Position numbers and translations under genes: made by a program. From a virus, in IMG/VR virus record IMGVR_UViG_3300027521_000001, positions 1 to 50,052 of that record: DNA of 50,052 bases. One strand, written 5' to 3'. Shown here in pieces: positions 1-49,921 of the stretch. Under the pieces are notes generated by a model that did not search any database, was not told the DNA's origin, and saw only the letters and a program-made list of their open reading frames with translations. Position 1 is the stretch's first letter. Each line of letters opens with the position of its first letter.

Positions 1-99
1 GGGGCGCCAGGACGGCGCAGTAAGGCATCCGGCGCTGGTGGTTCGAATCCGCCCGGTGGGCAGGCCAGCTCTCAGTAAGGGCATCGCGCCTCAGGGGCT
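1..99. repeat. Terminal direct repeat, copy 1 (identical to 49954..50052)
   Basis: Base-by-base comparison shows bases 1-99 equal the last 99 bases of the window. The repeat touches both window ends, giving a unit length of 49953 bp. Confidence 0.97.
37..53 (+). other. tRNA T-arm-like hairpin (GGTGG TTCGAAT CCGCC), not part of a foldable tRNA
   Basis: 5-bp stem including one G-T pair, with a consensus T-loop TTCGAAT. I could not build an acceptor stem or anticodon arm from the flanks on either side of the junction. Confidence 0.4.
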
Positions 100-111
100 A
101 GAGGGTCCGTC

Positions 112-126
112 GCAGTTCGACTCTGC
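112..126 (+). other. Second tRNA T-arm-like hairpin (GCAG TTCGACT CTGC)
   Basis: 4-bp stem plus a T-loop-like heptamer. As with the first hairpin, a CAGTAAGG(G)CATC motif lies upstream (18-29 for the first, 73-85 for this one). Confidence 0.35.
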
Positions 127-136
127 CGCCGCGAGC

Positions 137-165
137 TTGCATCTCCCCTCCCGCAGGCGTAGACT
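137..165 (+). promoter_or_regulatory. Sigma70-like promoter TTGCAT-17 nt-TAGACT
   Basis: -35 at 137-142 and -10 at 160-165. The first ATG (174) starts 8 nt after the -10, suggesting a leaderless or near-leaderless transcript. Confidence 0.55.
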
Positions 166-173
166 CAGCGCCG

Positions 174-461
174 ATGCCGCCCGCTGACCCGGCCCCGTTG
201 CCGCCAGTTCCGACCGCGACCGCGGTCCTGCCGCCGGCTGAGGCCGGCGAGACCACGAGCGAGTATCGCCTCGTCCGCGTCTTTGGCATCATCACCACTA
301 CCGGCTACTCACTGCTCGTCGGAGCTGTCGGCGCGCACCTGGTCACGATGACCGCGGACGCCCTGGCCTTCTTGGGCTCGGCGCTGGTTACGGTCAACGG
401 GGCGGTGATCGCGGTCTATGCGGCAGCGCGGTCGAGCCGCAAGAAGGGGACGCCGGGATGA
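174..461 (+). CDS. Small membrane protein, unknown function
   Basis: 95-aa ORF directly after the promoter. It has two hydrophobic stretches (GIITTTGYSLLVGAVGAHLV, ALAFLGSALVTVNGAVIAVYAA) and its stop overlaps the next start (ATGA). Confidence 0.6.
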   Translation: MPPADPAPLPPVPTATAVLPPAEAGETTSEYRLVRVFGIITTTGYSLLVGAVGAHLVTMTADALAFLGSALVTVNGAVIAVYAAARSSRKKGTPG

Positions 462-661
462 AGACCCTCTGCGCCAGGATCGGAGGAATAGGCGGTCCCG
501 TCGCCGAACTTTCGGAGGACGGCTCGCGCTCTCTCTACGGCCCTGGCTACAAGCACTCGGGCGACTTCACGGTTTTTACGATACCCGACGCTCCACCAGA
601 GTACGAAGCCGCCTTCATTCACTGGTGCCGCGAGAACACATTCGCCGCTTGGCCTTCGTGA
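458..661 (+). CDS. Hypothetical protein
   Basis: 67-aa ORF with balanced composition, coupled to both neighbours by overlapping stop and start codons. Confidence 0.6.
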   Translation: MKTLCARIGGIGGPVAELSEDGSRSLYGPGYKHSGDFTVFTIPDAPPEYEAAFIHWCRENTFAAWPS

Positions 662-831
662 TGAGATACGGGAAGACTATCGCGCTGAGGAAGGTAATGC
701 GCGAGGCGCTGGGGCGCGGTGAAACCTGCTTGGAGCTCAGCCGGCACGGTGGCCTGATCGTACACCGCCCCGGAAGGCCGCCAGAGATCCAACCCTCAAG
801 CTTTCCGCTTCTCGGAGCGCAGAGGCCATGA
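661..831 (+). CDS. Hypothetical protein (MRYGKTIALRKV...)
   Basis: Internal ATG of track ORF 418..831. It forms a TGATG overlap with the upstream stop and an ATGA overlap with the downstream start. Confidence 0.5.
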   Translation: MRYGKTIALRKVMREALGRGETCLELSRHGGLIVHRPGRPPEIQPSSFPLLGAQRP

Positions 832-1130
832 TCCCCGAGCCCATCACCAACGCGCAGGCCCTCCCGCAGTCCACCGCGCGGCGCCGCTCCGGCATCCTCG
901 AACAGGAGCCGGAGAACGTCATCCACGGCACCCGCAACCGGCCGGGACCGTTCGCCGGCAAGGACGAGAGCTACCCGGTCGGGGACAAGAAGCACGTCAA
1001 GCTCGCCCTATCCGGTCTGTCCCATGCCATCAACGCCCACACGATCCAGCCCGGCGCTGCTGCCAAGGTCCGGGCGAAGATCCACTCCCAGGCGGCAAAG
1101 CTTGGGGTGCAAGTCTCGGGAGGGAAGTGA
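828..1130 (+). CDS. Hypothetical protein with YPVGDKKHVKLALS motif
   Basis: 100-aa ORF. The motif resembles the YP(I/V)xDxxHVxxAL box seen in small phage head-module proteins; this is from memory only. Confidence 0.6.
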   Translation: MIPEPITNAQALPQSTARRRSGILEQEPENVIHGTRNRPGPFAGKDESYPVGDKKHVKLALSGLSHAINAHTIQPGAAAKVRAKIHSQAAKLGVQVSGGK

Positions 1131-1133
1131 ACC

Positions 1134-1838
1134 ATGCCACACCCGCGTCGCATCGGTGGCGGTCTCCTGGCTGCCGCTGTCGCCTTCGCTCTCCCTGTCG
1201 CCTTCGCTCTCTGCACGCTGGTCGCGAGCCTGGGACCGCGCGCCACAGCACAGGTGAACTACCCGCTACTCACCGGCGACCCGCACTGGCGCGGTCCTGT
1301 CTCGAACTCGGCCGCCCTGCCCGCGACCCGCAACAGCAACGGCGACATCATCGAGACCCTGGACACTCACTTCCTGTGGATCTGGGACTCGACCGCTTCC
1401 GCCTGGTCGACCAGCTCCGTCCGGCGCGGCAACCACGGCGAGAGCTCCGTGCCGTTCCTGCTCTGGGAGAACATCTCGCTTTCGACATCGGGCGTGACCT
1501 CGACCGGGACACACAACCTGCTGCCCGCCAGCTCCCTCATCGACCATGTCGACTGCGTCGTGACCACGACAGTCACCGGCTCGGGAGTCACCGGCCTGCA
1601 GGTTGGAGATGGCAGCACTGTCGATCGCTTCCTCTCGGCTGGCGCTCTGGCGCTCACGGCGGGGAGCAAGGCGATCGGCTGGAATGTCCGCCGTCCGGCC
1701 TACGCCACGACCGACGCCAAGGGGCCGACGCAGGCCGCCCTCGCGCAGGTGGTGGTGACTGCGGTCGGGGGAACGCCCACGGCGGGCGCGGTCAGCTGCT
1801 CTTCCTTCGGGTCTACGATCACGGCGCCGGCAAGCTGA
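1134..1838 (+). CDS. Sec-signal exported protein sharing an N-terminal motif with the 3545..5086 protein
   Basis: N-terminus MPHPRRIGGGLLAAAVAFALPVAFALCTLVASLGPRATA-Q looks like a cleavable signal peptide. The motif ALPATRNSNGDIIETLDTHFLWIWDSTASAW is paralogous to ALPPSGNALGDCRSTRDTGLLYCWNGSW in 3545..5086. Confidence 0.7.
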   Translation: MPHPRRIGGGLLAAAVAFALPVAFALCTLVASLGPRATAQVNYPLLTGDPHWRGPVSNSAALPATRNSNGDIIETLDTHFLWIWDSTASAWSTSSVRRGNHGESSVPFLLWENISLSTSGVTSTGTHNLLPASSLIDHVDCVVTTTVTGSGVTGLQVGDGSTVDRFLSAGALALTAGSKAIGWNVRRPAYATTDAKGPTQAALAQVVVTAVGGTPTAGAVSCSSFGSTITAPAS

Positions 1839-2128
1839 TGAAGCCCTCCATCGGCAGGATCGTGCACTACGTCACGATGGGAAGCGATCCACTGGCGGAT
1901 GAGCACTTTCGCGCCGGCCTCCATGCGCCAGCCATAGTCGCCGCTCTGATGCCGCTGGTGGAACAGGACGAGAGCTGCATGCTCGCCATGTTTCTTCCTG
2001 GCTTCGAGCGTGTCCTGCCGATCGTTGCCGCGCATTCGGAGGGCCGCGAGCCGGGCACCTGGCACTGGCCGGAGCGCGAGGAAGGCGATGCTCCAGCGGT
2101 CCCGGCGCGGCGACAGGACGGCCTATGA
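1838..2128 (+). CDS. Hypothetical protein (MKPSIGRIVHYV...)
   Basis: Internal ATG of track ORF 1127..2128 with a TGATG overlap to the upstream stop. The sequence upstream in that frame is Arg/Pro-rich and not protein-like. Confidence 0.55.
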   Translation: MKPSIGRIVHYVTMGSDPLADEHFRAGLHAPAIVAALMPLVEQDESCMLAMFLPGFERVLPIVAAHSEGREPGTWHWPEREEGDAPAVPARRQDGL

Positions 2129-2394
2129 AGCGGGCCGCTGTTCTCATTCTCGCCTGCACCCTCGCCGGTTGCTCCTGGTTCGAGAAGCCCTGCGCCAGCT
2201 GCGGTCCAGCCGGCCCCAACATCCCGCCGCGCTACGTCGGGCCGTCCGCAGCCGAGCAGCAGTGCATCAAGGCACGGAACGACGCCCTCTTGGCCTACAA
2301 CGGCATCTTGGACGGGGCGGCAAAGGAGCGAGTGGCCGCCGCCTGCTGGCCGCTGGTCCTATCGCTGCCGCCCACAGGGAAGTGGCCGCAATGA
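2125..2394 (+). CDS. Lipoprotein 1 (lipobox TLAGC)
   Basis: MKRAAVLILACTLAG-C is a signal peptide plus lipobox. The mature part is Cys-rich, and ATGA overlaps occur at both ends. Confidence 0.7.
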   Translation: MKRAAVLILACTLAGCSWFEKPCASCGPAGPNIPPRYVGPSAAEQQCIKARNDALLAYNGILDGAAKERVAAACWPLVLSLPPTGKWPQ

Positions 2395-2618
2395 CCCGCG
2401 CCCTCTGCCTGCTCGCCCTCGCCGCGCTGCTCGCCGGCTGCCAGCCGTACTACATAGTCGACTACAACACCGGCATTCCGACCGAGTGCCGGGTGACGGA
2501 GCGGACCACGACGGGGTTTATCTGCATCGACAAGTGGAAGCGGTTCTGGTCCTGCCGCTGGACGCCGGCCAGCAAGGAGCTGGACGGGCAATGCTCGCCG
2601 CTGGGAGGGAAGCCATGA
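2391..2618 (+). CDS. Lipoprotein 2 (lipobox LLAGC)
   Basis: MTRALCLLALAALLAG-C, using an internal ATG of track ORF 2010..2618. ATGA overlaps occur at both ends. Confidence 0.7.
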   Translation: MTRALCLLALAALLAGCQPYYIVDYNTGIPTECRVTERTTTGFICIDKWKRFWSCRWTPASKELDGQCSPLGGKP

Positions 2619-3337
2619 AGCGCGCCGCCCTGCTCGCCGCCCTGCTGCTCCTCGCCGGCTGCGCCAGCACCACGCGCACGCCGCTGGCTAGCTTCCCGTG
2701 GATCAACGCTATCCGTCACGCGCCGCCCGTCCTCGCCTGGAGGTGCGAGTCGGCGCGCGGCGACATCCGCGGCGATTTCGTGTTCTGCCATCCGGACCCA
2801 GATGCGCCGCCTCAGATGGACCAGGCCGCGCACCTGAGCTACGACCCGGACGGGACCGGAGGCTGGTCCAAGGTCGATAGCGACCCAGCCGCCACGCCGT
2901 GCCTGAAGCACTGCGGTGATCCAGCTCACCCGGGCTGCTGGGGCATCTGCGAGAGGGCAGGCATCGATCCCCGCAGCCCGCAGCAGAAGGCGCCTCCGGG
3001 CGACGCTTACGCGATTCGCGGTGCTGCCCATACGGCGCTACCGCAGTCCGGGGCGCCTTCTGGTACGAGCCCGGCGCCTTCTGCTGCGGAGCAATTCCGC
3101 TGCCTCTGGTTTGGGGAGCGGGATGAACGGCAGGCCCTCGCGTGCGGGGATAGCTCAACTGGTAGAGCGGCGGCTAGCCATGCCGGCGGTTTCGGGTTCG
3201 AGTCCCGCTCCCCGCTTTCCGCAGTCCCGGCGCCGAGCCCCACTCCCCGCTGGGAGTCGGCCCCGGCAGCGACTCGGCGCCGCGTTACACCCTGGCCGAG
3301 TTTCTCCTGCGCCTGCGCAGCAGGGTCGGCGACATGA
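2615..3337 (+). CDS. Lipoprotein 3 (lipobox LLAGC); 3' end uncertain
   Basis: MKRAALLAALLLLAG-C, using an internal ATG of track ORF 2486..3337. The frame has no stop until 3337, so it reads straight through the tRNA at 3144..3216. The translation after about 3100 is low-complexity. Confidence 0.55.
   Translation: MKRAALLAALLLLAGCASTTRTPLASFPWINAIRHAPPVLAWRCESARGDIRGDFVFCHPDPDAPPQMDQAAHLSYDPDGTGGWSKVDSDPAATPCLKHCGDPAHPGCWGICERAGIDPRSPQQKAPPGDAYAIRGAAHTALPQSGAPSGTSPAPSAAEQFRCLWFGERDERQALACGDSSTGRAAASHAGGFGFESRSPLSAVPAPSPTPRWESAPAATRRRVTPWPSFSCACAAGSAT
3144..3216 (+). tRNA. tRNA, probably Gly(GCC), with an unusual anticodon loop TAGCCAT (A at position 33)
   Basis: Hand-folded cloverleaf. The acceptor GCGGGGA/TCCCCGC pairs 7/7, the D arm is GCTC-AACTGGTA-GAGC, the anticodon stem is CGGC/GCCG plus one G-G mismatch, and the T arm is (T)CGGG-TTCGAGT-CCCG(C). 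Confidence 0.8.
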
Positions 3338-3447
3338 TCGCCAGGAACCCCAAGAATCACGCCGATCAGTGGCTCGTCGCGGAGCGGTACTTTGCTGACA
3401 ACTTCGAGCCGATCGACCCGCCGCCGACCGCGGTGCCCCCGCGATGA
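3334..3447 (+). CDS. Small ORF (MIARNPKNHADQWLVAERYFADNFEPIDPPP...)
   Basis: The protein-like frame is open from 3178 but has no ATG/GTG/TTG before 3334. Its stop overlaps the next ATG (ATGA). Confidence 0.3.
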   Translation: MIARNPKNHADQWLVAERYFADNFEPIDPPPTAVPPR

Positions 3448-3548
3448 CCGACCGGGAACTCCGCGCCCTCGAGCTGGCGCTGCGCCACGCGACGGCGCAG
3501 GAGATCGCAGAGACACTCGCAGCCATCCGGAGGGGAGGCTCGTGGTGA
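3444..3548 (+). CDS. Small ORF (MTDRELRALELALRHATAQEIAETLAAIRRGGSW)
   Basis: 34 codons, overlap-coupled on both sides (ATGA upstream, GTGA downstream). Confidence 0.35.
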   Translation: MTDRELRALELALRHATAQEIAETLAAIRRGGSW

Positions 3549-5086
3549 AGGTGAAGGCATTCCTCTTCGTCGTTCTCCTCTGCTGCGCCGCCGCTCTATC
3601 CGCCCAGCTCCCGACGCCCGTCACGCCGAGCACTACTCCCGGGCCGAGCGCGCCCTTCGCCGGTCGCAGCGTCGCCACCTTTACCGCTCTTCCTCCGTCC
3701 GGCAACGCTCTGGGTGACTGCAGAAGCACCCGCGACACCGGCCTGCTCTACTGCTGGAACGGCTCCTGGGTGACCGGCAGCGGTGGCGGTGGATCCGGCA
3801 CGCTTACCTCCTTCGGAGTGTCGTCGCTTCCCTGGCTCGCTGTCGCGAATCCGACGACAACGCCTGTCCTCTCGCCAGCTACAGGGCAGACCTCCGGCCT
3901 GGTCATCGGCACGTGCGGGAGTGCGACCACGGTCGGGCTGTGTGCGCTGACCGCCGCGATGATCCCGACGCTCAACCAGAACACCACCGGGAATGCAGCG
4001 ACCTCGAGCGACGGCCTGTCGAGCGCGAGCGGCACGGCACCACTGAACCTCTCGCTGTCGTCCAAGGCGCTGACCGGCTCCGTCACCATCACGCCGGCGA
4101 ACCCCGGCGGCGCCGTGGCCCTGCAGGCGACCACGCCCGGGACGGCTCAGACCGGCAATGCCAATTTGAGCGGCACCATGATCGCCGGCGCCTTCTCTGG
4201 CCCGCTCACCGGCAACGTGACCGGGAATGCCTCCGGCACCGCGACGAATGTCACTGGGACCGTTGCAGCCGCGCACGGCGGGACAGACAACACGGCAGCC
4301 GCCGATTCGAGTATCCTGATCGGCAACGGCACCGTCTTCCTGCTCAAGCTGGTAGCGGACTGTATTGATTCGGGCGGCAATCACCTCAACTACACGGCGG
4401 CCACCCATACCTTCAGCTGCGGCACCAGTAGCTCGGGAGGGGGCGCCCTCTCGAACCCCCTACCAGCGGGCTCCCTGTCGTCCGCCGCTCTTCAGGTCGT
4501 TGACGCCGGTACCGGCCTCTCGCAGCAGGCGGCGCACACGCTCTCGCTGGCCGCCAACGGCGCCGGATTCCTCCGCGGTATCGGCGTAGCATCCCCAACC
4601 GACTACCTGACCGCGACCGCTTCAGCGACGGGCGGCGGTGCGACGGGCCCCCAGCTCGGCGTGGGCGGTTCCGATGCCACGATCGACCTGCTGTTTAACA
4701 CCAAGGGCGCCTCCTCCCGCATTGTCTGGAGCATCAACGGTGTCTCCCTCATGGACTTCACAGATGTTGGCGGCGGCGCCTTCGCGCTGCGAAATCTGAG
4801 CGGTCAGTTCCGGGCCGGAGGCGGCATCCTCGACCCCAACTTCGTAGCCTGGAACAACGACACCTATCTCTTCCGTGCTGCCGCGGGCGTTGCCGCTGTG
4901 AGCAGCGCCGCAAACGGCAATGGCGGCGGAAGCCTCTTGCTCACCGAGATCCAACTCGTACCCGGCGCCGTTGGCACATGCGGCTCGGGCCAAAAGGGAC
5001 ATCTCAGAGTTGCGGCTGACGGAACCCTATGCAGTTGCAACGGAACGACCTGGACGGCAACCCCGCTGACTGGATCATGTATTTGA
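3545..5086 (+). CDS. Tail-fibre-like protein with an N-terminal signal-peptide-like segment
   Basis: GTG start 8 nt after GGAGG gives MKVKAFLFVVLLCCAAALSA-Q. It contains Gly/Thr/Asn-rich repeats (TGNVTGNASGTATNVTG) and a fibre-like HGGTDNT motif. The C-terminus GHLRVAADGTLCSCNGTTW repeats the N-terminal motif type. Confidence 0.8.
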   Translation: MKVKAFLFVVLLCCAAALSAQLPTPVTPSTTPGPSAPFAGRSVATFTALPPSGNALGDCRSTRDTGLLYCWNGSWVTGSGGGGSGTLTSFGVSSLPWLAVANPTTTPVLSPATGQTSGLVIGTCGSATTVGLCALTAAMIPTLNQNTTGNAATSSDGLSSASGTAPLNLSLSSKALTGSVTITPANPGGAVALQATTPGTAQTGNANLSGTMIAGAFSGPLTGNVTGNASGTATNVTGTVAAAHGGTDNTAAADSSILIGNGTVFLLKLVADCIDSGGNHLNYTAATHTFSCGTSSSGGGALSNPLPAGSLSSAALQVVDAGTGLSQQAAHTLSLAANGAGFLRGIGVASPTDYLTATASATGGGATGPQLGVGGSDATIDLLFNTKGASSRIVWSINGVSLMDFTDVGGGAFALRNLSGQFRAGGGILDPNFVAWNNDTYLFRAAAGVAAVSSAANGNGGGSLLLTEIQLVPGAVGTCGSGQKGHLRVAADGTLCSCNGTTWTATPLTGSCI

Positions 5087-5217
5087 TGCGCCGCCTTCGA
5101 TGCCTGCTCTTCGGGCACGACTTCCGCGAGCCGCTCCAGCCGGCGCAAGGCTACCGGCCTAGAACTCTCCGCTGCGCCTGTGGCGAAGCGATGATCTTCG
5201 ACCCGATGAACTACTGA
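5086..5217 (+). CDS. Small Cys/His protein (MRRLRCLLFGHDF...CACG)
   Basis: Internal ATG of track ORF 5029..5217 with a TGATG overlap to the fibre-like gene stop. An alternative start lies at 5077. Confidence 0.45.
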   Translation: MRRLRCLLFGHDFREPLQPAQGYRPRTLRCACGEAMIFDPMNY

Positions 5218-5231
5218 AGGAGAATCGCAAA

Positions 5232-5516
5232 ATGGGACTGACTCTAACGCAGAACGGTGACGGCAGCCTGACCTTCGTCGACCAGGACGGTAACGAGGGA
5301 ACCTTCAAGCTCGGCGTTGTCGACTCCGACCCGACGCGCGGGTTGCTCATCGCCGTCTCCAAGGATGGCGTCGAAGCCCCCGTCGGAACGCTCAGTATGG
5401 CGAGCGCCGGCCGGCTCGAGATGCAGCTCAGGAATGCGGGGGGCTCGGCATTCGTCCTCACCGAGGCCGCGACCATCCCCAATCCAGACGCAGGCCTGAT
5501 CACCTGGGCCGGCTGA
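5232..5516 (+). CDS. Hypothetical protein
   Basis: 94-aa ORF preceded by AAGGAG 8 nt upstream, with balanced composition. Confidence 0.75.
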   Translation: MGLTLTQNGDGSLTFVDQDGNEGTFKLGVVDSDPTRGLLIAVSKDGVEAPVGTLSMASAGRLEMQLRNAGGSAFVLTEAATIPNPDAGLITWAG

Positions 5517-5522
5517 GACGGC

Positions 5523-5864
5523 GTGGCCGCCCTCTCCGACGCCGACTTCCCGACCGGCTTCGCCTACTCCGACCGCGAGCGGTTGAAGCGGGTCGAGGCG
5601 AAGCTAGACCAGCTACTTTCCAAGGAGGAACGCATGTCAGCAACTCTCGACGCCCTCGTAGCACAGGTGGCCGCCACGACCACCGTCGAAGCCAGCGCCG
5701 TCGCCGCGTTCAACGGCATCGCCGCCCAGATCGCCACCCTTGCGGCCCAGAAGGAAGACGCCGACCTCGCCGGCCTGGCGGACAAGCTGAAGGCCAGTGC
5801 GGCGGCTCTCGGTGCCGCTGTCGTGGCGAACACGCCGGCCGCGCCCGCAGCGCCAGCAAGCTGA
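5523..5864 (+). CDS. Ala-rich coiled-coil protein, unknown function
   Basis: 113-aa ORF with a GTG start, followed by a terminator-like hairpin. Confidence 0.65.
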   Translation: MAALSDADFPTGFAYSDRERLKRVEAKLDQLLSKEERMSATLDALVAQVAATTTVEASAVAAFNGIAAQIATLAAQKEDADLAGLADKLKASAAALGAAVVANTPAAPAAPAS

Positions 5865-5898
5865 CCGTGCTACGATAGCGACCGCATGACCTCCCTCC

Positions 5899-5943
5899 TC
5901 CGGCTCCTGCGCGGGCGGAAGACTGCCGGGAGCCGGACCTTTT
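5899..5943 (+). terminator. Rho-independent terminator candidate
   Basis: A 9-bp stem (TCCGGCTCC at 5899-5907 pairing with GGAGCCGGA at 5929-5937) is followed by CCTTTT. It lies 35 nt after the stop at 5864. Confidence 0.5.
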
Positions 5944-5955
5944 GAGGAGACGGCA

Positions 5956-6279
5956 ATGCCGATGACCAGGCGAGGATTCTTCGGGGCGCTAGCGGGGCTG
6001 GCGGCAGCGGTAGGGCTGGCGTCGATCGCCAAGGCAGTACCGCCATCGCCCGCAGTCCCGGAAGTCGCACCGCGACCCCAAGGCGAATGGCGCAGCCAGA
6101 CGACTGCTCTGATGGCGGACCGCAGCATGATCTCCCTTGAAGCGGCCGAGCCGATCGAGGCAGGAGATCTGTTGACGCTGACGGAGGACGGAAGGGCACG
6201 CCGCTATCGGTACGGTCACGACAAAGGGCGAAAGCCCTTCGGTCGCGCCATTTCCTATAAGACTTGGCTGGATCGCTGA
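5956..6279 (+). CDS. Tat-signal protein (MPMTRRGFFGALAGLAAAVGLASIAKA)
   Basis: A twin-arginine motif TRRGFFG is followed by a hydrophobic region and an AKA cleavage-like site. GAGGAG lies upstream of the ATG. Confidence 0.7.
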   Translation: MPMTRRGFFGALAGLAAAVGLASIAKAVPPSPAVPEVAPRPQGEWRSQTTALMADRSMISLEAAEPIEAGDLLTLTEDGRARRYRYGHDKGRKPFGRAISYKTWLDR

Positions 6280-7097
6280 TGACCACTTCCGACCCGATCA
6301 GCCTGGGAGCGACCGGCCTCCACCTGCAAGACCTCGCCGTCTCGATCTACAAGCGCACCGGAACCAGCGGCAACGCCGTCCTGCTTGCCTCCTACGAGGG
6401 GCCGTGGGTTTCCGGCGGCCCCTACACGATCGGCGATATCGTCTACTCGTCCGCGGTCTGGTACTCGAACCTGACCGGCGTCAACACCTCGACGGCGCCG
6501 GCGGGAGACGCGACCAACTGGGCCGTCTTCGTGCCGCCGCTCGCCTTGGTGGAGCTCGGGGACAGCCTCTACCAGCTGACGGGCCTGACCGACGCGCTAC
6601 CCAATGACCGCTGGTCGGTCTCGATCGCCCTGGCAGGCTCCCCGTCCTCGATCATCACCACCTACACCTACGGCTTCGTCTTCCCAGGCCGCGGCCCCGA
6701 TGTCATCTCGAACACGCCCGCTGGCTATCAGACCAAGGCCGGCCAGATCGCCATCCGCACCGGGACGGTCTACCCATGGCCCACGGTGGATGTCTACGGC
6801 CTCCCGAGCGACCCGACAGGCGCCACGGGAACCTTTGCCCTGGCGCCGCTCGGCGGGGGCGCCGGGATCACGCTGGCCGGCTCCGTCGCCATCCACACCG
6901 ACGCCTACGGCTCGCCCTCGCAGTACCACGTCCGGGCAGAGTACAAGTGGGCCGCTGCCGACACTCTCATCGGGAACCTGCCGGCCGGCGTCTATGTCGG
7001 CGTCTTCACGCTGACGGTGCCGGTGATCGGGGCTGTTGTGGCGCCCGCGAACGACCAGCTGCGGGTGACGGTGAGCCCGCTGGTGCCGGTGAGCTGA
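6279..7097 (+). CDS. Putative receptor-binding / fibre protein with a CBM5/12-like motif
   Basis: ATG with a TGATG overlap; an alternative TTG lies at 6264. GPYTIGDIVYSSAVWYSNLTGVNTSTAPAGDATNW matches the Y-x-x-GD-x-V...W...P...W pattern of chitin-binding-type modules (from memory). Confidence 0.7.
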   Translation: MTTSDPISLGATGLHLQDLAVSIYKRTGTSGNAVLLASYEGPWVSGGPYTIGDIVYSSAVWYSNLTGVNTSTAPAGDATNWAVFVPPLALVELGDSLYQLTGLTDALPNDRWSVSIALAGSPSSIITTYTYGFVFPGRGPDVISNTPAGYQTKAGQIAIRTGTVYPWPTVDVYGLPSDPTGATGTFALAPLGGGAGITLAGSVAIHTDAYGSPSQYHVRAEYKWAAADTLIGNLPAGVYVGVFTLTVPVIGAVVAPANDQLRVTVSPLVPVS

Positions 7098-7270
7098 TGG
7101 AAGAGTTGCCGCCGACAGTCACCGGCCGCGGCGGTCGTCTTACCGTGCGGACTTACGGACACGCCGATAGCCTCGCTACCGAAGCGAAGGAGTTGCTAGA
7201 AGAGGCGCGGCGCCTCAACAGACAACTTCCGTTTTTCGGAATGGTTCGATGCTCACCTCCGGCGCCCTAG
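7097..7270 (+). CDS. Small hypothetical protein (MEELPPTVTGRGG...)
   Basis: Internal ATG of track ORF 6776..7270 with a TGATG overlap. It overlaps the portal start by 22 nt. Confidence 0.4.
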   Translation: MEELPPTVTGRGGRLTVRTYGHADSLATEAKELLEEARRLNRQLPFFGMVRCSPPAP

Positions 7271-8817
7271 CCAGCATCATGCCGGCCTACGGCGCCCTCC
7301 CGCCGTCGAGCCAGCAGGACCGCTCCAAGCGCATCGGCTTCGAGGTCGGCCGCTACGCCAACGTCATGGCGAGCAAGGGCTTCGGCTCGAAGCTCTCGAT
7401 CGGCCCCGACGAGCTGCCGGAGCTGCGCCTCCCCATCGTCACCTGGGACCAGCCGCCCATCCTCTACGCCGGCGGTGTCACCGTCTGGATGCGCGATGAC
7501 CCGATCATCCGCCACGTCGGGCCCGCCACCGGCCAGTACCAGGACGAGCGCACCTATCGGGCCATGCGCACCACCGTCGCCCCTGTGCAGAACTCGATCA
7601 ACGCCCTGAACGCGCAACTGCTCGGCGTCGGCTACTCCCTTCAGACCCCGCGGCAGCGGCGCAGCATGCCGGCCGCCAAGGCGCTGAAGGACGAGCTGAC
7701 CGCGATGTTCAAGCGGCTCGACAACCTGCATGCCTACCTCGAGATCGCCTCGACCGTCGTCTGGGACGGCTGGATGCCCACCCAGACCTGGTGGAGCAGC
7801 TACGCCTACAACGGCAAGTCGGTCTGGGGGCCGGACAAGATCTTCGAGATGCCGCAGGAGTTATTCGGCGTCACCCCGGATCGCAAGCTAGCCTGGCTCG
7901 GCTACACGATGACCCAGACGATGCCCGAGGTCTTGGACTCCGAAGAGGACGAGATGATGACGTGGCTATGGACCTCCTCCGGGTCCACGCGCAGCCCGTA
8001 TGGGACCGCCAGGCTGCGCCACCTCTACGTCATCGGCTGGGCCTGGAAGCAAGCCTTCCAATGGCACATGGAGGGCGCCCGCAACGCCCTGCAGGGCATT
8101 CCGGTCGTGACGGAAGAGGTCCCCGTCTTCGGCGGGATGCCTGGCTCCGCCGAGCGCGCGTCACAGGTAGGCGAGGCTGGCACCGCGGCGATGAAGGAGG
8201 CGATGAAGGAAGCGCAGGGCATGATGCAGATGCTGAAGGAATACGGCATCCTCATCCTGCGCGCCGGCTACAAGTACAACAACATGACCACCGCCGGTTT
8301 CGAGGCCGGTTGGGGCAAGCTGCTGGACGACCTGGCGCTGATGCTGACGGTTGGAGTGCAGGGCCAGCACCTCACCCAGAGCCTTGGGGAGCATGGCGGA
8401 TCGCGCGCCACAGCCGACGTCCAGGAGCGGACGAAGGTCGATCACGTACGCGGCATCGCCCGGCCCGAGGAGCTGGTGCCGAACGAGTTGATCCGCCGGT
8501 ACCTCGCGGTCAACTACTCGACGGAGCCGGACCCTGACGACGTGCCGGTCTGGGGCTTTCATCTTCTGGACCCGGTGGACATCGCGAAGTCCGCTTTCTT
8601 CTGCCAGTTCGGCGGCAAGCTCGACGCGCAGGAGATGGCCGCTCGGCTCGGCGATCTCCCGATCTCGATCGAGGAAGAGACGGCGGGCCCGGTCCTCGAG
8701 ATGCAGGGCCCTCCGCCGAGTCTCGCCGGTGAGGGCGGCAAGAACGCCGCGCCGCCGGAGGAGCGCGTGAAGAAGGTAGGCGACCCGACAGACCAGGGGA
8801 AGGAGAGCGTGGATTGA
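7249..8817 (+). CDS. Portal protein (Mu gp29 / DUF935-like)
   Basis: 522 aa, positioned upstream of the protease/scaffold and capsid genes. The segment LTQSLGEHGGSRATADVQERT resembles the conserved DUF935 core (from memory). Confidence 0.78.
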   Translation: MLTSGALASIMPAYGALPPSSQQDRSKRIGFEVGRYANVMASKGFGSKLSIGPDELPELRLPIVTWDQPPILYAGGVTVWMRDDPIIRHVGPATGQYQDERTYRAMRTTVAPVQNSINALNAQLLGVGYSLQTPRQRRSMPAAKALKDELTAMFKRLDNLHAYLEIASTVVWDGWMPTQTWWSSYAYNGKSVWGPDKIFEMPQELFGVTPDRKLAWLGYTMTQTMPEVLDSEEDEMMTWLWTSSGSTRSPYGTARLRHLYVIGWAWKQAFQWHMEGARNALQGIPVVTEEVPVFGGMPGSAERASQVGEAGTAAMKEAMKEAQGMMQMLKEYGILILRAGYKYNNMTTAGFEAGWGKLLDDLALMLTVGVQGQHLTQSLGEHGGSRATADVQERTKVDHVRGIARPEELVPNELIRRYLAVNYSTEPDPDDVPVWGFHLLDPVDIAKSAFFCQFGGKLDAQEMAARLGDLPISIEEETAGPVLEMQGPPPSLAGEGGKNAAPPEERVKKVGDPTDQGKESVD

Positions 8818-9002
8818 GCGAGGCTGGCCAACTTCCTGATGATCGCATCCTCACGCGACGAGTAACGGACTGGTCTGCGTCGGATGAAGAGGTCCGATCA
8901 AGGCCGCCAGAGTTAGTCGGCCAGCGCGACCCACGTTGCGACCGTTTCCATGTTCCTGACTGCGCTTGCCACGGCCTCATCAAGATCATGAGAGTGCGAT
9001 GA
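8814..9002 (+). CDS. Possible small ORF (TTG start)
   Basis: Lies in a lower-GC stretch. Its stop forms an ATGA overlap with the next ATG. The start codon and coding status are weak. Confidence 0.3.
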   Translation: MSEAGQLPDDRILTRRVTDWSASDEEVRSRPPELVGQRDPRCDRFHVPDCACHGLIKIMRVR

Positions 9003-9683: not shown

Positions 9684-10982
9684 GTGGAAACCTCCCACTG
9701 GGCGCGGTACCGTGACCTGCTCTTCCGGTCTGCCATCCGCGCCGCGTTGCCGGCGACTCAGGAGCGTAAGCCGCTCGACTCGGCCGATTGGGTGCCTCTC
9801 GCGCACGCGGAAGGCGCCGATGCGCCTTACCCCGACGCCGAGAAGTTCACCCACGAGCGGCTAGCGCACGCCGCCAGCGCCTACGACCCGAGGAAGCAGC
9901 GCGCGCCCATCATCCGGACCGGCACCGGCCGCGTGATGGATGCGCACGATGCCGGCATGGGGAAGTCCCGCGCCAAGGCGGATGTCCTCGGGTGGGTGGA
10001 CGGCCTCCGGATGAACGGCGGCGTCATGGAAGGCAAGCTCACCGAGATTGCCGACCGCTGCCGCGCCTGCCGCGGGGATGACCCGTCCTGCACCGCCTGC
10101 CGCGGCACCGGCTACGCCGGCCGCCTCGGGGGCGCCATCGCGGACGGCCACCAGAAGCGCTCCGCCTGGATCTCGATGAACCACCCGCAGTTCGACAAGC
10201 AACCCTACTTGCGGCACCTGGCAGTCGGCTACGACGGCGAGGGCCAGAACTATCTCCCCAAGCTCGGGGACTTCATCCCCGCCGCGCGGGCGCTCGACGA
10301 CGCAGAAGGCGTCATCCACGCCTGCCGCGCGATCCCGGCCGAGCCGGAGGACCAAGCCATGCTATCGAAGGAAGAGATGGAAGCCCTGGTCAAGGAGGCC
10401 GTTCGCGGTGCACGCGAGGCGGCAGCGGCCGAGAGCAAGGAGCTGTTCGGGACCTCGCTGAAGGCGGCGCTCGAAGAGGCGCTGAAGCCGATCGGCCTTC
10501 AGATCGCGGCCGCCACGACCAAGGCGGAAGAGGCGGTCGAGAGCGCCCGGGCCATCCGCGAGCAGGCCGCGGACGCCACCCTGGTCAACCGCATCGACGG
10601 CGCCGTCAAGCAGGGCCGCATGCTCCCGAAGGACCGCGATCTGCAGCTCGAGCTGGTCCGCGGGCTGAAGACGCCGGAGCTGCAAGAGAAGGCCCTGGTG
10701 GCGATCGAGAGCCGGCGCTCGATGCTCACCGACCGCGGCGCCTACCAGCCGGCCGAAGCGGAGGACGCGAACCTGCCCGAGGTGGACTTCGGTCTCGCGG
10801 CCGGTCTCGCCGCCGACTTCCGGCCCGCTTCCGGCGAGGCCTGGATCGAGGCGGCGCGCGGCATCAAGAACCCGGACGGCAAGCCGGCGACGGCGGATCA
10901 GACGCTCGCGGCGGTCATGTCCGCCAACCCCAACCCCTTCGCGCTGTGGGGCACCCGCTGCCCCTTCAACGACGCGAACTAG
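9684..10982 (+). CDS. Prohead protease / scaffolding protein (Mu gpI/Z-like)
   Basis: 432 aa between the portal and the capsid gene. It has an Ala/Glu-rich coiled-coil C-terminal half with GRMLPKDRD, typical of Mu-type scaffolds. The GTG start is uncertain. Confidence 0.7.
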   Translation: METSHWARYRDLLFRSAIRAALPATQERKPLDSADWVPLAHAEGADAPYPDAEKFTHERLAHAASAYDPRKQRAPIIRTGTGRVMDAHDAGMGKSRAKADVLGWVDGLRMNGGVMEGKLTEIADRCRACRGDDPSCTACRGTGYAGRLGGAIADGHQKRSAWISMNHPQFDKQPYLRHLAVGYDGEGQNYLPKLGDFIPAARALDDAEGVIHACRAIPAEPEDQAMLSKEEMEALVKEAVRGAREAAAAESKELFGTSLKAALEEALKPIGLQIAAATTKAEEAVESARAIREQAADATLVNRIDGAVKQGRMLPKDRDLQLELVRGLKTPELQEKALVAIESRRSMLTDRGAYQPAEAEDANLPEVDFGLAAGLAADFRPASGEAWIEAARGIKNPDGKPATADQTLAAVMSANPNPFALWGTRCPFNDAN

Positions 10983-10991
10983 GAGACGCGC

Positions 10992-11399: not shown

Positions 11400-11415
11400 G
11401 GCTCCGGAGAACGCC

Positions 11416-15160: not shown

Positions 15161-15170
15161 GGAGAGACCA

Positions 15171-23278: not shown

Positions 23279-23279
23279 C

Positions 23280-25622: not shown

Positions 25623-25636
25623 GGGTGATTATCCGC

Positions 25637-48140: not shown

Positions 48141-48269
48141 ATGACGATGCGCATGCCGAAGGGATGGAGCCAGCACACCCGCGGCGGCTGGTGGATGGTC
48201 ATCGACGACAAGGGATTACTGCGCGCGGTTGTCGCCGTGGAGGCGCAGCAGCGTAGAATCGGCGGGTGA
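48141..48269 (+). CDS. Small ORF (MTMRMPKGWSQHTRGGWWMVIDDKG...)
   Basis: 42 aa with GAGAGGAG upstream. Its stop overlaps the terL GTG. Confidence 0.35.
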   Translation: MTMRMPKGWSQHTRGGWWMVIDDKGLLRAVVAVEAQQRRIGG

Positions 48270-49921
48270 TCGCCGCCGTAGACCGCCCCCGCATCAGACC
48301 CCACCCAGGACCACAGGAGCGCTTTCTATCCACGCCGGCCGACATCTGCATCTACGGTGGTGCTGCCGGCGGCGGCAAGTCCTACGGGCTGCTCCTCGAG
48401 CCCCTGCGCCACGTCTTCACCATCCCTGGCTTCGGCGGCAAGATCTTCCGCCAGACCTCGACCCAGATCACCGAGGAAGGCGCCCTGTGGGACGAGGCCT
48501 GCGGGCTCTACATCCCGCTCGGCGGCCGTCCCCGAGAGGATGAGCTGAGCTTCACCTTCGCGCCCTACAGGAACACCATCAGCTTTGGCCACCTGAATCA
48601 CGCCAAGGAGCGCTACGAGCACCAGGGCGCGCAGATCTGCTATCTCGGCTACGACGAGCTCACCCTCGTTGGCCGCGGCGCCGGCAAGACTCGCGAGGCG
48701 GAAGAAGCCCGCGCGGAGGCTACCTGGTGGTATCTCCTCTCCCGCAACCGCTCCGTCTGCGGCATCAAGCCCTACTGCCGCGCCACCGTCAACCCGGATA
48801 GCCGCTCCTGGGTCAAGAAGCTCATCGCCTGGTGGATCGACCTCGAGACTGGCTTGCCGATCCCGGAGCGCAGCGGCGTCATTCGGTGGCTCTACCGGCG
48901 TAAAAAGGTGCTGTGCTGGTACGACACCGCCGATGAGGCGGCGGCAGCCAATCCAGACCTGGCGTGGAAGGGACCGCCCAAGAGCGTGACCTTCATCCCG
49001 GCGAAGCTCGAGGACAATCCCGCGCTGGTGCAGAGAGACCCTGGCTACGCCGGAAATCTGCTGCTGCAGGACCCCGTCGAGGGCGAACGGCTGCTCGAGG
49101 GGAACTGGAACAGCCAGGAGGTAGTGCCAGGCTTCCCGATCTGGACCGTTCCCGGCAGCCTCGAGGAGAACGCTCCGCGCGCAGCGTGGGCCAGCTGCCT
49201 CTACGACGAAGAAGACCCCCGTTGGAAGTCGATCGCCGCCGAGACCCGCCGCAAGCACATCGGCATCGGCGGCTGGGACTTCGGCACCGGTCCCTCGCTC
49301 CTGGTGCGCCTGCACGCCCTCCTCGAGCTGGCGCCCAAAGGCAGCAAGCGGCCCCCGAAGGTCTGGCTCGACGATGAGCTCTCCTGGCACAGCCGGGAGT
49401 GGACAGGCGCCGCGGCAGACGTCTGGAACCAGCACCAGCGGAACGGCTACGGGAACACGCGCCTGGACGGCGGCGACCCGACCGGCATCAGCCGGGAGTC
49501 GAACATGGAGAGCTGGCAGTCGAACCTCCGGGCGGCCGGGATCCCGCTCGTCTGTCTGCCGGTCTGGTTCAACAGCGAAGAGGGTCGGGAGTGGACGATT
49601 CGTGATGTCCAGCGCCTGCTCGACATGGGGCTGCTGATGGTGCACCGGCGCTGTCGAGGCTTCGTCAAGGCGCTGCGGGAGTGGAAGCGGGATGTGGACG
49701 ACGGGATCTCGCTCGAAGGGCTGAACCTTGAGCGGGTGAAGCCGCGGCACGACGACAACTCCCACTTCGGGATGGCCGGCTGCTACCTCATCGCGACGAT
49801 CCTGCGGTATGCGGTGATGGTCTCCCGGCAGCCGGAGGAGGTACCGCCTGGCGCGGCGAGGCTGCCGATCGAGCTGGCACAGACGAGCTTCGAGCGGTTG
49901 TGCAAGGCGGTGCGCATGTGA
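48266..49921 (+). CDS. terL: Terminase large subunit
   Basis: PHPGPQERFLSTPADICIYGGAAGGGKS gives Walker A and YLGYDELT gives Walker B. A nuclease-type C-terminal half follows. 551 aa. Confidence 0.93.
   Translation: MIAAVDRPRIRPHPGPQERFLSTPADICIYGGAAGGGKSYGLLLEPLRHVFTIPGFGGKIFRQTSTQITEEGALWDEACGLYIPLGGRPREDELSFTFAPYRNTISFGHLNHAKERYEHQGAQICYLGYDELTLVGRGAGKTREAEEARAEATWWYLLSRNRSVCGIKPYCRATVNPDSRSWVKKLIAWWIDLETGLPIPERSGVIRWLYRRKKVLCWYDTADEAAAANPDLAWKGPPKSVTFIPAKLEDNPALVQRDPGYAGNLLLQDPVEGERLLEGNWNSQEVVPGFPIWTVPGSLEENAPRAAWASCLYDEEDPRWKSIAAETRRKHIGIGGWDFGTGPSLLVRLHALLELAPKGSKRPPKVWLDDELSWHSREWTGAAADVWNQHQRNGYGNTRLDGGDPTGISRESNMESWQSNLRAAGIPLVCLPVWFNSEEGREWTIRDVQRLLDMGLLMVHRRCRGFVKALREWKRDVDDGISLEGLNLERVKPRHDDNSHFGMAGCYLIATILRYAVMVSRQPEEVPPGAARLPIELAQTSFERLCKAVRM

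Follow-up and report, generated by a model that had tools for sequence, protein, structure and literature searches.

Results

The window analysed here is the whole 50,052-nt stretch of IMG/VR record IMGVR_UViG_3300027521_000001. Its two ends share an exact 99-nt overlap, which makes the genome a circular or permuted phage unit of 49,953 bp, and independent assemblies of the identical genome were found in other samples. Between terL and the portal gene lie 7,280 nt, which bears out the interval of ~7.3 kb given in the original prediction. This block holds 17 ORFs, all on the plus strand and backed by third-position GC and an independent public gene call, and most neighbouring ORFs overlap by 1-4 nt (Table 1). 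The terL product is 68-71% identical to that of the relatives L012, L014 and L020, and the order terL, block, Portal_Mu is kept in four related genomes (L012, L014, L020 and L021). The position of the block is thereby supported as a conserved feature of this uncultured phage lineage and not an accident of assembly.

Table 1 Features of the terL-portal block and its surroundings (positions in the window; a slash marks the predicted cleavage site)
Feature	Position	Strand	Evidence or remarks
Terminal overlap of assembly	1-99	.	Exact repeat of 49954-50052
Claimed promoter, TTGCAT-N17-TAGACT	137-165	+	Weak match, not counted as established
95-aa protein, 1-2 hydrophobic segments; first gene after terL	174-461	+	76% identity in L014
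Two small ORFs (458-661, 661-831)	458-831	+	No signals, no homologues
100-aa cytoplasmic protein, weakly DUF6582-like	828-1130	+	PF20223 23.6 bits (cut-off 27.3); phrog_16160
234-aa protein, predicted to be exported	1134-1838	+	Sec signal (ATA/Q), shared tail-fibre N-domain, conserved C-terminal domain
96-aa signal-less protein	1838-2128	+	phrog_2293; conserved in L014 and L020
Lipoprotein 1	2125-2394	+	Lipobox LAGC, four more cysteines; homologues in L020 and L021
Lipoprotein 2	2391-2618	+	Lipobox LAGC, four more cysteines; homologue in L014
Lipoprotein 3	2615-3337	+	Lipobox LAGC, Cys-rich; L014 homologue of 137 aa
tRNA-Gly (GCC)	3144-3216	+	ARAGORN; Rfam RF00005 51.1 bits (threshold 29); inside insertion
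Two very small coupled ORFs (3334-3447, 3444-3548)	3334-3548	+	Second conserved in L014
513-aa fibre-like protein	3545-5086	+	Sec signal (LSA/Q)
Three small signal-less proteins (5077-5217, 5232-5516, 5523-5864)	5077-5864	+	Gene calls, synteny
G+C-rich hairpin, 15 bp, then CCUUUU	5899-5943	+	Folding of 91-nt gap
107-aa twin-arginine protein (TRRGFF..AKA/V)	5956-6279	+	TIGR01409 15.2 bits (cut-off 16.7)
272-aa signal-less protein, directly upstream of portal	6279-7097	+	Weak phrog_28006 match
Portal, Mu type; downstream boundary of block	7249-8817	+	phrog_113; PF06074 (Portal_Mu) on homologues
Lysis-like genes outside block	31395-33888	.	phrog_3108
terL, large terminase; upstream boundary of block	48266-49921	+	phrog_979, E 2.5e-75

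The block is heterogeneous, with signal-less and cytoplasmic proteins beside the exported ones, and in the relatives it also includes genes for endonuclease VII, a NUDIX protein and lysis. Several of its genes keep fixed places. The 100-aa gene lies directly upstream of the gene for the 23x-aa exported protein, and the 272-aa gene adjoins the portal, each in 5/5 lineage genomes; the 272-aa protein carries a ~45-aa insertion absent from the relatives. The place of the 95-aa gene is taken by shorter transmembrane proteins in L020 and L021. In every relative, the distant L015 and L017 among them, the fibre gene is followed by a counterpart of the small gene at 5232-5516, and the product of 5523-5864, a coiled-coil and Ala-rich protein, is 92% identical to its L014 counterpart. 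The predicted tRNA was confirmed by both searches, and it lies in an insertion of ~440 bp that disrupts the 3′ end of the lipoprotein 3 gene, so the ORF now extends across the tRNA gene, and ORF 3334-3447 bears what was once the C-terminus (..VPPR) of the lipoprotein. Outside the block, the lysis-like genes encode transmembrane and coiled-coil proteins (31395-32439, plus strand) and an SLT-like protein (33358-33888, minus strand), and the spanin-like gene at 32104-32439 has no lipoprotein partner alongside; in L012, homologues of the lysis-like genes lie inside the terL-portal block. A search for defence and exclusion genes by PADLOC returned nothing, Pfam and NCBIfam gave nothing significant, and no sequence similarity of block proteins to Llp, Cor or other exclusion/defence proteins was found.

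The block had been described as having its own promoter and terminator, the promoter being near-consensus. However, the two hexamers agree with the consensus at 3/6 and 4/6 positions (7/12), and a sigma-70 promoter scan of positions 1-9000 gave 0 sites; the exact string occurs once in the window. As for the claimed terminator, the hairpin itself (5899-5937) is strong (-41.4 kcal/mol for the 91-nt gap, z = -2.5), but the following U-tract is short (UUUU) and the hairpin is absent from the list of the terminator scan; its role may be that of a weak terminator or of an element that stabilises RNA. No terminator was seen after terL or before the portal gene. No sign of independent transcription was found; with its weak promoter, the lack of these flanking terminators and its translational coupling, the block seems to belong to the late operon, with which it would be co-transcribed. 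No integrase or lysogeny module was found in this genome, and the classic picture of a prophage-expressed moron or superinfection-exclusion gene therefore has no support.

Export signals are concentrated in the block. Using a heuristic of hydrophobicity and -3/-1 residues, together with conservation and cysteine statistics, we found such signals in six block ORFs (two Sec, three lipoboxes and one twin-arginine), that is, in 6/17 ORFs of the block vs ~1/44 elsewhere in the genome (Fisher p = 0.0013). The prediction of at least six exported proteins is thus upheld for the two Sec N-termini and the three lipoproteins. The twin-arginine protein has the expected N-terminus, and both protein and motif are conserved in L014, but its TIGR01409 score falls under the cut-off. 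Among 172 related proteins, an even count of mature cysteines was found in 50/57 signal-bearing members (binomial p = 4e-9), compared with 35 even and 41 odd counts in the signal-less ones (Fisher p = 5e-7). The GDC..YCW cysteine pair occurs in 18/41 signal-bearing members vs 0/53 signal-less members (p = 2e-8). In addition, 41/58 predicted signal peptides would leave Gln at +1 after cleavage, a pattern described for Sec substrates (PMC5837995) and noted for phage-encoded secreted proteins (PMC10367356). Given the even cysteines, the signal-restricted pair and the mostly present Gln, it is very likely that export by these signals is real and functional.

The two Sec-signal proteins are related to each other and to tail fibres. 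The signal peptide and a ~45-aa domain are common to both (hhalign probability 97.4%, E 1.2e-11), so the motif that had been noticed in them reflects true homology. In the 234-aa protein, which has a weak phrog_3904 tail-fibre match, two invariant cysteines lie in the highly conserved C-terminal domain, and 8/8 homologues have a signal peptide followed by an invariant Gln. Its identity among relatives is 59-66%, vs 39-43% for the portal; conservation above that of the portal is unusual for an accessory function and counts against an action on the envelope. The 513-aa protein consists of the signal, a Pro/Thr linker, the N-domain with a Cys pair (predicted structure at pLDDT 86-89), a Gly-rich hinge, a repeat shaft and a Cys-rich tip, with 10 cysteines in the mature protein. 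Mosaic homologues, together with relatives that match tail-fibre PHROGs, uphold its fibre-like character. Every fibre homologue of the lineage retains the signal peptide; its sequence drifts, and the n/h/c organisation and AXA/Q site persist. The N-domain is a widespread tail-fibre module that occurs with and without a signal peptide, and it is also found in 5-9 internal repeats within giant proteins. The 513-aa protein is the only fibre-like gene product of this genome, and no second copy of its tip was found on another protein of the genome, so a decoy copy of the phage's own receptor-binding protein is unsupported.

Beyond the four related genomes with the block at the terL-portal position, the synteny comparison tells in part against the original interpretation, because signal-bearing fibre homologues lie within tail/structural modules of the distant relative L015 and of the unrelated L024 and L025. 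L025 has three large signal-bearing proteins, and in L015, which carries an integrase, the fibre gene adjoins lysis-like genes. A weakly related signal-bearing homologue with Peptidase_S74 (P0025) is encoded not in a phage but in a bacterial chromosome, beside type II secretion/type IV pilus genes, and some members of the fibre family bear pectate-lyase or Laminin_G-type domains.

Discussion

The observation of a block of exported-protein genes between terL and portal holds, with its details partly confirmed, and the interpretation given to it is partly supported. Compared with ordinary side tail fibres (PHROG 3904-type repeat, lambda Stf-like shafts), the proteins described here have a similar N-domain/repeat, Gly-rich hinge, 'TGNA.T' shaft repeats, mosaic tips and a small downstream gene. 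In contrast, classical fibres lack a signal peptide and are poor in cysteines, whereas cleavable Sec signals and paired cysteines are predicted here, and a position between terL and portal is unusual for them. Filamentous phages have a virion protein, pIII, that binds the receptor, carries a Sec signal peptide and acquires stabilising disulfides in the periplasm. However, filamentous phages assemble by membrane extrusion, whereas the present phage is tailed, with terminase, portal, capsid and tape-measure genes, and its particles would therefore be assembled in the cytoplasm. T5 Llp and Cor of phi80, N15 and HK022 are receptor-blocking siphophage lipoproteins, and T5 llp adjoins pb5. The lipoproteins of the block are likewise small, Cys-containing and putatively envelope-directed, and they lie near a receptor-binding-type gene; we count this likeness to T5 llp/pb5 for an action on the envelope. 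Unlike Llp and Cor, to which they have no detectable homology, they are three tandem lipoproteins of different families, and the exported fibre-like companions present here are absent from Llp/Cor systems.

A cellular precedent exists in the MAT fibres of Bdellovibrio bacteriovorus (PMC10769870), in which a signal peptide directly precedes a conserved beta-rich N-domain and a phage-fibre-like trimer stands on the cell surface. They also resemble our proteins in the phage-tail-fibre-like shaft, in the interchangeable tips and in being exported and not cytoplasmic, which for our proteins is predicted from sequence. However, MAT genes are chromosomal genes of a predatory bacterium with an N-domain of ~130 aa (PMC10769870), whereas here the genes lie in a putative phage late operon and the domain has ~45 aa, and a comparison with the solved MAT fragments gave no sequence match. 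In Porphyromonas gingivalis phages, 'Q-rule' proteins (PMC10367356; rule, PMC5837995) have a predicted signal-peptidase-I cleavage that exposes an N-terminal Gln, as in our case, and the authors of that study take it as an adaptation to host secretion with potential outer-membrane modification. In the passage on them, these secreted proteins are not described as fibre-like, and the phages are temperate phages of Bacteroidota with low G+C, in contrast to the 67% G+C of this genome.

As the best reading, we tentatively propose that the block is an envelope-directed module, expressed late, whose products mask receptors or alter the surface. Export, the concentration of the signals and lineage conservation favor this part of the original prediction, but the fibre ancestry, the relatives in tail modules and the mixed gene content do not, and no outer-membrane translocation route was found for the block products, Sec alone leading only to the periplasm. 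The lack of an integrase, of a convincing promoter and of similarity to Llp, Cor or other exclusion proteins likewise counts against it. The main and serious rival, which we rate as somewhat less likely and which takes up the periplasmic assembly route offered as an alternative in the original prediction, is that the two Sec-signal proteins are genuine virion fibres, maturing in the periplasm and joining the particles at lysis. After Sec export, they would gain disulfides and a blocked (pyroglutamate) N-terminus, and would dock by the N-domain on fibre-less particles once holin, endolysin and spanin merge the compartments. A virion component fits equally well the sole fibre-like gene, the mosaic module exchange known from receptor-binding proteins, the small gene always 3′ of the fibre gene as in fibre-chaperone pairs, and the homologues in the tail/structural modules of L015, L024 and L025. 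Moreover, the N-domain and shaft are common to signal-less tail fibres and to annotated tail-fibre/minor-tail proteins of cultured phages, the gene forms a coupled part of the apparent late operon and is flanked by neither promoter nor terminator, and the disulfide signatures hint at why the proteins would be exported. In T4, fibre attachment is the last step and also works in vitro. On the other hand, the literature searched gave no account of tail fibres exported by Sec in tailed phages, docking after lysis risks dilution, and three lipoproteins and a Tat substrate have no obvious role in a virion. The internal repeats of the N-domain in giant proteins argue that it is not a dedicated docking domain, and the small downstream protein could not chaperone periplasmic folding because it has no signal.

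The exported proteins could also be surface adhesins or enzymes that aid the host or phage release, so that displayed or secreted fibres change the adhesion, aggregation or capsule of the infected or lysogenic cell, a case of conversion rather than exclusion. The Bdellovibrio parallel, the chromosomal P0025, the pectate-lyase or Laminin_G-type domains of some family members and the integrase of L015 point in this direction, but we consider it improbable, since no enzymatic domain was detected in the proteins of the window, this genome has no integrase, the late-operon position argues against expression in a lysogen, and no way of crossing the outer membrane was found. Very improbable, in our judgment, is an ordinary displaced tail-fibre/lysis-accessory module, in which the hydrophobic N-termini are non-functional or only tether to the membrane, the lipoproteins serve as the outer-membrane part of spanins and fibre assembly follows the usual cytoplasmic course. 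Such a module would agree with the terL-portal block of L012, which has an SLT-like enzyme, an inner-membrane-spanin-like gene and a lipoprotein, with the lysis-like neighbors of the L015 fibre, with the partnerless spanin-like gene of this genome and with the signal-less fibre relatives. However, the even-cysteine bias, the signal-restricted Cys pair and the AXA/Q sites are hard to explain without export, the lipoproteins are three and not one, with none embedded in or beside a spanin partner here, and the arrangement of signal and N-domain recurs on a second protein that is highly conserved.

In conclusion, phage particles take shape within the cytoplasm, and export signals on fibre-like proteins are for this reason unexpected. 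According to the envelope-directed reading that we prefer, the core products of a lineage-conserved late-operon module, namely two proteins composed of tail-fibre modules (513-aa and 234-aa), three Cys-rich lipoproteins and one Tat substrate, would leave the cytoplasm of the infected cell. Export by Sec or Tat and cleavage by signal peptidase I or II would be followed by oxidative folding with disulfide bonds in the periplasm, and the fibre proteins would be left with an N-terminal Gln. The three lipoproteins, having no Asp at +2, would go to the outer membrane if the E. coli rule applies to the host. The products would then act on the envelope instead of being built into cytoplasmically assembled particles, the small lipoproteins in the manner of T5 Llp or Cor and the fibres as envelope-anchored binders with an architecture comparable to that of the Bdellovibrio surface fibres. 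By binding or occluding the surface structures used by the phage, they may block superinfection, and fewer progeny would be lost on infected cells and debris.

Export signals of the terL-portal block

Signal calls were made with a heuristic scan of hydropathy, charged n-region and the residues at -3 and -1, and the same rule was applied to the other ORFs of the genome. For a Sec/SPI signal, the rule asked for a positively charged n-region, 10-15 hydrophobic residues as the h-region and a small residue at both -3 and -1. The lipobox was defined as [LVI][ASTVI][GAS]C closing a short signal peptide, and the twin-arginine (Tat) pattern as S/T-R-R-x-F-L-K with an h-region and an AXA site after it. 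Using these rules, the Sec-type and lipoprotein signals of the original prediction were recovered. The 234-aa protein and the 513-aa fibre-like protein start with predicted signal peptides (best 10-residue hydropathy 2.7-3.2, K/R at the start, cleavage sites ATA/Q and LSA/Q), and this form is retained in every homologue of the lineage despite sequence drift. The three lipoproteins carry the lipobox after K/R-containing n-regions, and it is retained in the homologues of three related genomes (L014, L020 and L021). The 107-aa candidate twin-arginine protein has an N-terminus of the form TRRGFF..AKA/V (TRRGFFGALAGLAAAVGLASIAKA/V), with TRRGFLG in its L014 counterpart, and it reaches 15.2 bits with the Tat model TIGR01409, just below the cut-off of 16.7. 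Among the other ORFs of the genome, the rule flagged about 1 of 44, which is an internal membrane anchor (p = 0.0013 compared with the block).

A bias towards even cysteine numbers is a known mark of proteins that form disulfides after export. Mature-chain cysteines were even in 50 of 57 signal-bearing relatives of the fibre family (binomial p = 4e-9), compared with 35 of 76 signal-less relatives (Fisher p = 5e-7), and the median number of cysteines was 6 and 2, respectively. Within the N-terminal domain described below, the cysteine pair GDC..YCW was present in 18 of 41 signal-bearing members and in 0 of 53 signal-less members (Fisher p = 2e-8), with two apparent signal-less exceptions being ORFs with a truncated signal peptide. 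Because the signal form is conserved, the cysteine pair is restricted to signal-bearing members and the even-cysteine bias points the same way, export of the signal-bearing fibre family is very likely real; the three independent sequence tests, whose evidence is indirect, agree, and none of them rejects the signals as functional. In addition, Gln occupies +1 in 41 of 58 predicted cleavage sites of the family (1134, 3545 and the 172 related proteins P0001-P0172). In Bacteroidetes and some other lineages, Gln at +1 of Sec substrates has been described as the 'Q-rule' (PMC5837995), and the pattern is noted for secreted proteins of Porphyromonas phages (PMC10367356). It may hint at an FCB-type or similar host, despite the 67% G+C of the window.

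Features of the phage genome discussed in the text
Feature	Position (nt)	Remarks
T-arm-like sequence	36-60 (= 49989-50013)	intergenic, after terL
234-aa protein	from 1134	predicted Sec signal
Lipoproteins 1, 2, 3	from 2125, 2391, 2615	LAGC at residues 13-16, 14-17, 13-16
Insertion relative to L014	2975-3433	~440 bp
tRNA-Gly(GCC)	3144-3216	genuine
513-aa fibre-like protein	from 3545	predicted Sec signal
Hairpin	5899-5937	15 bp
107-aa twin-arginine protein	from 5956	predicted Tat signal
Upstream neighbour of portal	6279-7097	weak phrog_28006 match, its sole match
Mu-type portal	7249..8817
Tail gene	21341-22426	contains tandem repeats, 21545-22202
Tail-tip gene	23184-25622
DNA methyltransferase genes (two or three)	25334-29638	phrog_116/363; PF01555
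Conserved tail-associated gene	29857-31398
Candidate lysis genes	31395-33888	two transmembrane and coiled-coil proteins, Cys-rich 96-aa protein, SLT-like protein (phrog_3108) on opposite strand
Spanin-like gene	32104-32439
214-aa protein	47064-47708	phrog_513, annotated 'transposase', E 6.6e-53
terL	48266..49921	phrog_979, E 2.5e-75
Protease, major capsid protein, large tube-like protein, 1,318-aa tape-measure protein		
RecT and YqaJ recombination proteins, DnaD-like loader, HNH endonuclease		DNA genes

Fibre ancestry and the shared N-domain

The 513-aa protein has 39 homologues and is strongly mosaic, with the first ~240 residues 86% identical to one protein, the middle 75% to another and the tip 85% to a third, which is the evolution style of receptor-binding fibres. 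The 234-aa protein has 8 homologues, and all 8 have a signal peptide and an invariant Gln at the predicted mature N-terminus; their C-terminal domain is very conserved and includes two invariant cysteines. The two families have in common a signal peptide and a domain of ~45 aa, the N-domain, as profile-profile comparison confirmed (probability 97.4%, E 1.2e-11). A search of the N-terminal region against 1.84 billion representative proteins gave 125 matches, and a profile search with the short N-domain alone was unproductive. The pattern W[KR]xPV..aLP..GN..GD.R...DT..iY.W.G..W was found in three settings: at the extreme N-terminus of fibre-like proteins lacking a signal peptide, directly after a signal peptide, and as internal repeats. 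In the last setting, very large proteins of 1,400-2,300 aa (P0051, P0052, P0060, P0103, P0110 and similar) contain the motif (~35-45 aa) 5-9 times, either in tandem or dispersed.

No Pfam family covers the N-domain, which seems to be equivalent to the repeat unit of the tail-fibre family PHROG 3904. In relatives it matches phrog_3904, 13892, 31460 and 863, and the 234-aa protein itself matches phrog_3904 weakly (E 0.0019). Signal-less members match tail-fibre and minor-tail PHROGs as well as tail fibres of cultured phages. For the shaft, matches were obtained to proteins of phages Motura, phiRSL1 and Cr-LKS3 that are tail-fibre or minor-tail proteins; the 513-aa protein itself gave no direct PHROG or Pfam match. 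Because the N-domain corresponds to a tail-fibre repeat and its signal-less members match tail-fibre families, the fibre ancestry of both proteins is solid. The predicted structure of the 234-aa protein was unusable (pLDDT 47), and that of the fibre (pLDDT 60 overall) was confident only in small N- and C-terminal beta-units and gave nothing significant by Foldseek in BFVD or PDB; sequence searches of PDB gave no match. The idea that the fibre ends in a C-terminal signal for type IX secretion was discarded, as NCBIfam gave no match.

Organization of the block and its transcription signals

From the terL stop to the portal start there are 7,280 nt, in line with the ~7.3 kb originally reported, and the gene content is as described there. 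The gap holds 17 plus-strand ORFs, which are backed by third-position G+C, by RBS-like sequences and by a public gene call made independently. At 12 junctions, ORFs overlap by 1-4 nt or are separated by only 3 nt. Longer intergenic stretches are limited to three: 206 nt follow terL, 91 nt lie at 5865-5955 and 151 nt precede portal. The near-consensus promoter said to open the block matches the consensus at 7 of 12 positions, and a promoter scan of 1-9000 found none. The proposed terminator does contain a hairpin, but only four U follow it and the terminator scan did not list it. Downstream of terL and upstream of portal, significant RNA structure was absent, with folding no better than that of shuffled sequence. 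A promoter and terminator of its own are therefore not established for the block, and we infer that it is part of the late operon.

The tRNA reported in the block is carried by an insertion that, relative to L014, has entered the third lipoprotein gene at its 3' end. ORF 2615-3337 therefore reads on across the tRNA gene, and the ancestral C-terminus (..VPPR, then stop) persists in another frame at 3217-3447. After terL, the T-arm-like sequence GGTGGTTCGAATCCGCC is accompanied by a possible acceptor strand and could be a decayed tRNA or the remnant of an old attachment site; ARAGORN does not call it, and Rfam has no match at E <= 1. The tRNA-like TTCGAATCC stretch after terL was dropped as a tRNA (no support from ARAGORN or Rfam) and as attP (no integrase found). 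The protein upstream of portal has an insertion of ~45 aa (..GPWVSGGPYTIGDIVYSSAVWYSNLTGVNTSTAPAGDATNWAVF..) at residues ~45-90, absent from L012, L014, L020 and L021, which by eye resembles a carbohydrate-binding (CBM5/12-like) motif.

Relatives and genome context

The first and last 99 nt of the window are identical, and it is thus a circularly closed assembly with a unit of 49,953 bp; public assemblies from other samples also contain this genome, and their gene calls across the block region are identical. Judged by its genes, it is a tailed phage. No integrase was detected in Pfam and PHROG scans covering the larger ORFs. By tblastn, the fibre, 234-aa protein, portal and capsid protein had 0 matches in cultured phages; the match of terL to these was confined to the ATPase half, and the terL-portal regions of its nearest relatives there are unrelated. 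Scans of genome contigs for prophages gave no match that would indicate a host, and scans of viral and metagenome contigs gave one relative only.

The order terL, block, Portal_Mu is kept in four related genomes: L014 (terL 71% and portal 43% identical), L012 (68% and 40%), L020 (terL 70%; the same contig as the IMG/VR relative L003) and L021. All five genomes have a DUF6582-like gene, a 23x-aa exported protein, a signal-bearing fibre with a small gene directly 3' of it, and a 22x-272-aa protein directly 5' of portal. Lipoproteins are present in the block of 4 of 5 genomes, the putative Tat protein including its motif is kept in L014, and extra genes include endonuclease VII and NUDIX in L021 and an SLT-like enzyme and spanin-like genes in L012. 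Since the SLT-like and spanin-like genes lie at 31.4-33.9 kb in the window and their L012 homologues between terL and portal, the gap is a hotspot that trades modules with the post-tail region. The block as a lysis cassette was rejected for the same position of these genes in the window. As for spanins, the window gene is ~25 kb from the block and has no adjacent lipoprotein, whereas in L012 and the more distant relative L015 lipoproteins follow the spanin-like gene.

In the window and its four relatives, the fibre gene is outside the tail module, whereas in three other phages it is within tail or structural modules. In L015, whose tail proteins are 26-32% identical to those of the window, it comes immediately behind the tail genes and is followed by lysis-like genes and an integrase; in the unrelated contig L024, it ends a head/structural operon. 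L025, an unrelated phage-like contig of 58% G+C, has three large signal-bearing, Cys-rich fibre-like proteins (894-3269, 10001-12259 and 13097-15661) interleaved with signal-less proteins of structural size within a structural module, and several exported fibres per phage may be common. Two further unrelated contigs (L016 and L017) show the same pattern, and one weakly related homologue is chromosomal and adjoins type II secretion/type IV pilus genes. Signal-bearing fibres thus do occur beside tail genes in part of the relatives, which partly bears out the objection that the block is only a rearranged fibre module. It is no simple one, however, since the export signals move together with the fibres.

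Elsewhere in the window, the tandem repeats in the tail gene comprise four units of 153-180 nt that show 64-71% identity to the reference copy, and they probably encode repeated Ig-like or similar domains. The DNA methyltransferase genes stand between two tail genes whose L015 counterparts are separated only by one 424-aa gene. The L014 counterpart of the 214-aa protein upstream of terL has Pfam PhageMetallopep, and the PHROG label 'transposase' may be misleading.

Discussion

Exported proteins encoded by phages are already known, and so are exported fibre-like adhesins. Tail fibres are usually taken as products of cytoplasmic assembly, and export signals on phage proteins are usually tied to lysis proteins or small exclusion factors. 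The predicted signal peptide argues against assembly of this fibre in the cytoplasm. Of the two readings that remain, we tentatively favour, at less than even odds, an envelope-directed module, in which exported fibre-derived binders and small outer-membrane lipoproteins would act on the envelope of the infected cell; masking of the receptor would exclude superinfecting phages and shield progeny from re-adsorption. T5 Llp and Cor are small Cys-containing lipoproteins encoded beside a receptor-binding-type gene. Receptor masking was chosen because the lipoproteins of the block recall these two and because the MAT fibres of Bdellovibrio are a cellular precedent for exported fibre architecture. 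However, the lipoproteins here have no homology to Llp or Cor (Pfam, NCBIfam, PADLOC). MAT proteins have a signal peptide, a conserved N-domain and a trimeric fibre with variable tips (PMC10769870), and our alignments show signal peptide, conserved N-domain and fibre with variable tips as the shared architecture; homology to them was not indicated by PDB sequence search or Foldseek, with PDB holding C-terminal MAT fragments only and a model of pLDDT 60. Against an envelope-directed module, exclusion or defence homologues numbered 0 in Pfam, NCBIfam and PADLOC (best, an EexN lipoprotein model, E 0.23), the genome has no second copy of the fibre tip, neither a route across the outer membrane nor a lysogeny module was found, and the 234-aa protein is conserved more than portal. 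A moron or prophage-expressed superinfection-exclusion cassette is not supported, as neither a promoter and terminator flanking the block nor, in the larger ORFs scanned with Pfam and PHROG, an integrase as a mark of a temperate phage was found. The fibre as a decoy of the phage's own receptor-binding protein was set aside, its paralogue being absent from the genome.

The proteins could instead be virion fibres that mature in the periplasm and dock at lysis, which we consider somewhat unlikely. The 513-aa gene is the sole fibre gene of the genome and probably lies inside the late operon, its modules are exchanged with signal-less tail fibres, its counterparts in other phages occupy structural modules, a small partner gene always follows it directly, and the disulfide signatures would give a rationale for export. 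Yet no precedent was found in the literature, lipoproteins and a putative Tat substrate share the block, the N-domain can be an internal repeat as well, and the small partner protein has no signal. The broader form of this idea, in which this lineage and many other uncultured phages would export side fibres via Sec, fold them oxidatively in the periplasm and add them to otherwise complete particles only when lysis merges the compartments, is unlikely in our judgement. A conversion or adhesin variant seems quite improbable, and there is but a slim chance of an ordinary module with non-functional signals, given the agreement of the sequence tests for export.

In our search, ~45% of the representatives with an N-terminal N-domain had a predicted cleavable signal peptide, and these bear independent marks of disulfide-bonded, exported proteins. 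Several uncultured phages that are unrelated to each other have signal-bearing homologues in their structural or late operons, and such homologues appear to be common among uncultured phages. For tailed phages, we found no published description of tail-fibre homologues that bear a signal peptide and are encoded in a late or structural operon, and either reading would be new for this group. If the fibres are virion parts, a part of the tailed-phage virion would mature outside the cytoplasm, a two-compartment assembly not known for Caudoviricetes. If the block is envelope-directed, phages would routinely export fibre-derived binders to the host envelope as a new class of envelope-directed effector, with bearing on the prediction of host range, on exclusion and on the ecology of adsorption. 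In practice, 'tail fibre' is the label that annotation pipelines will give these genes, and tools that predict host range will count them, perhaps wrongly, among the virion receptor-binding proteins. The +1 Gln pattern may also hint at the host where a phage gives no other host signal.
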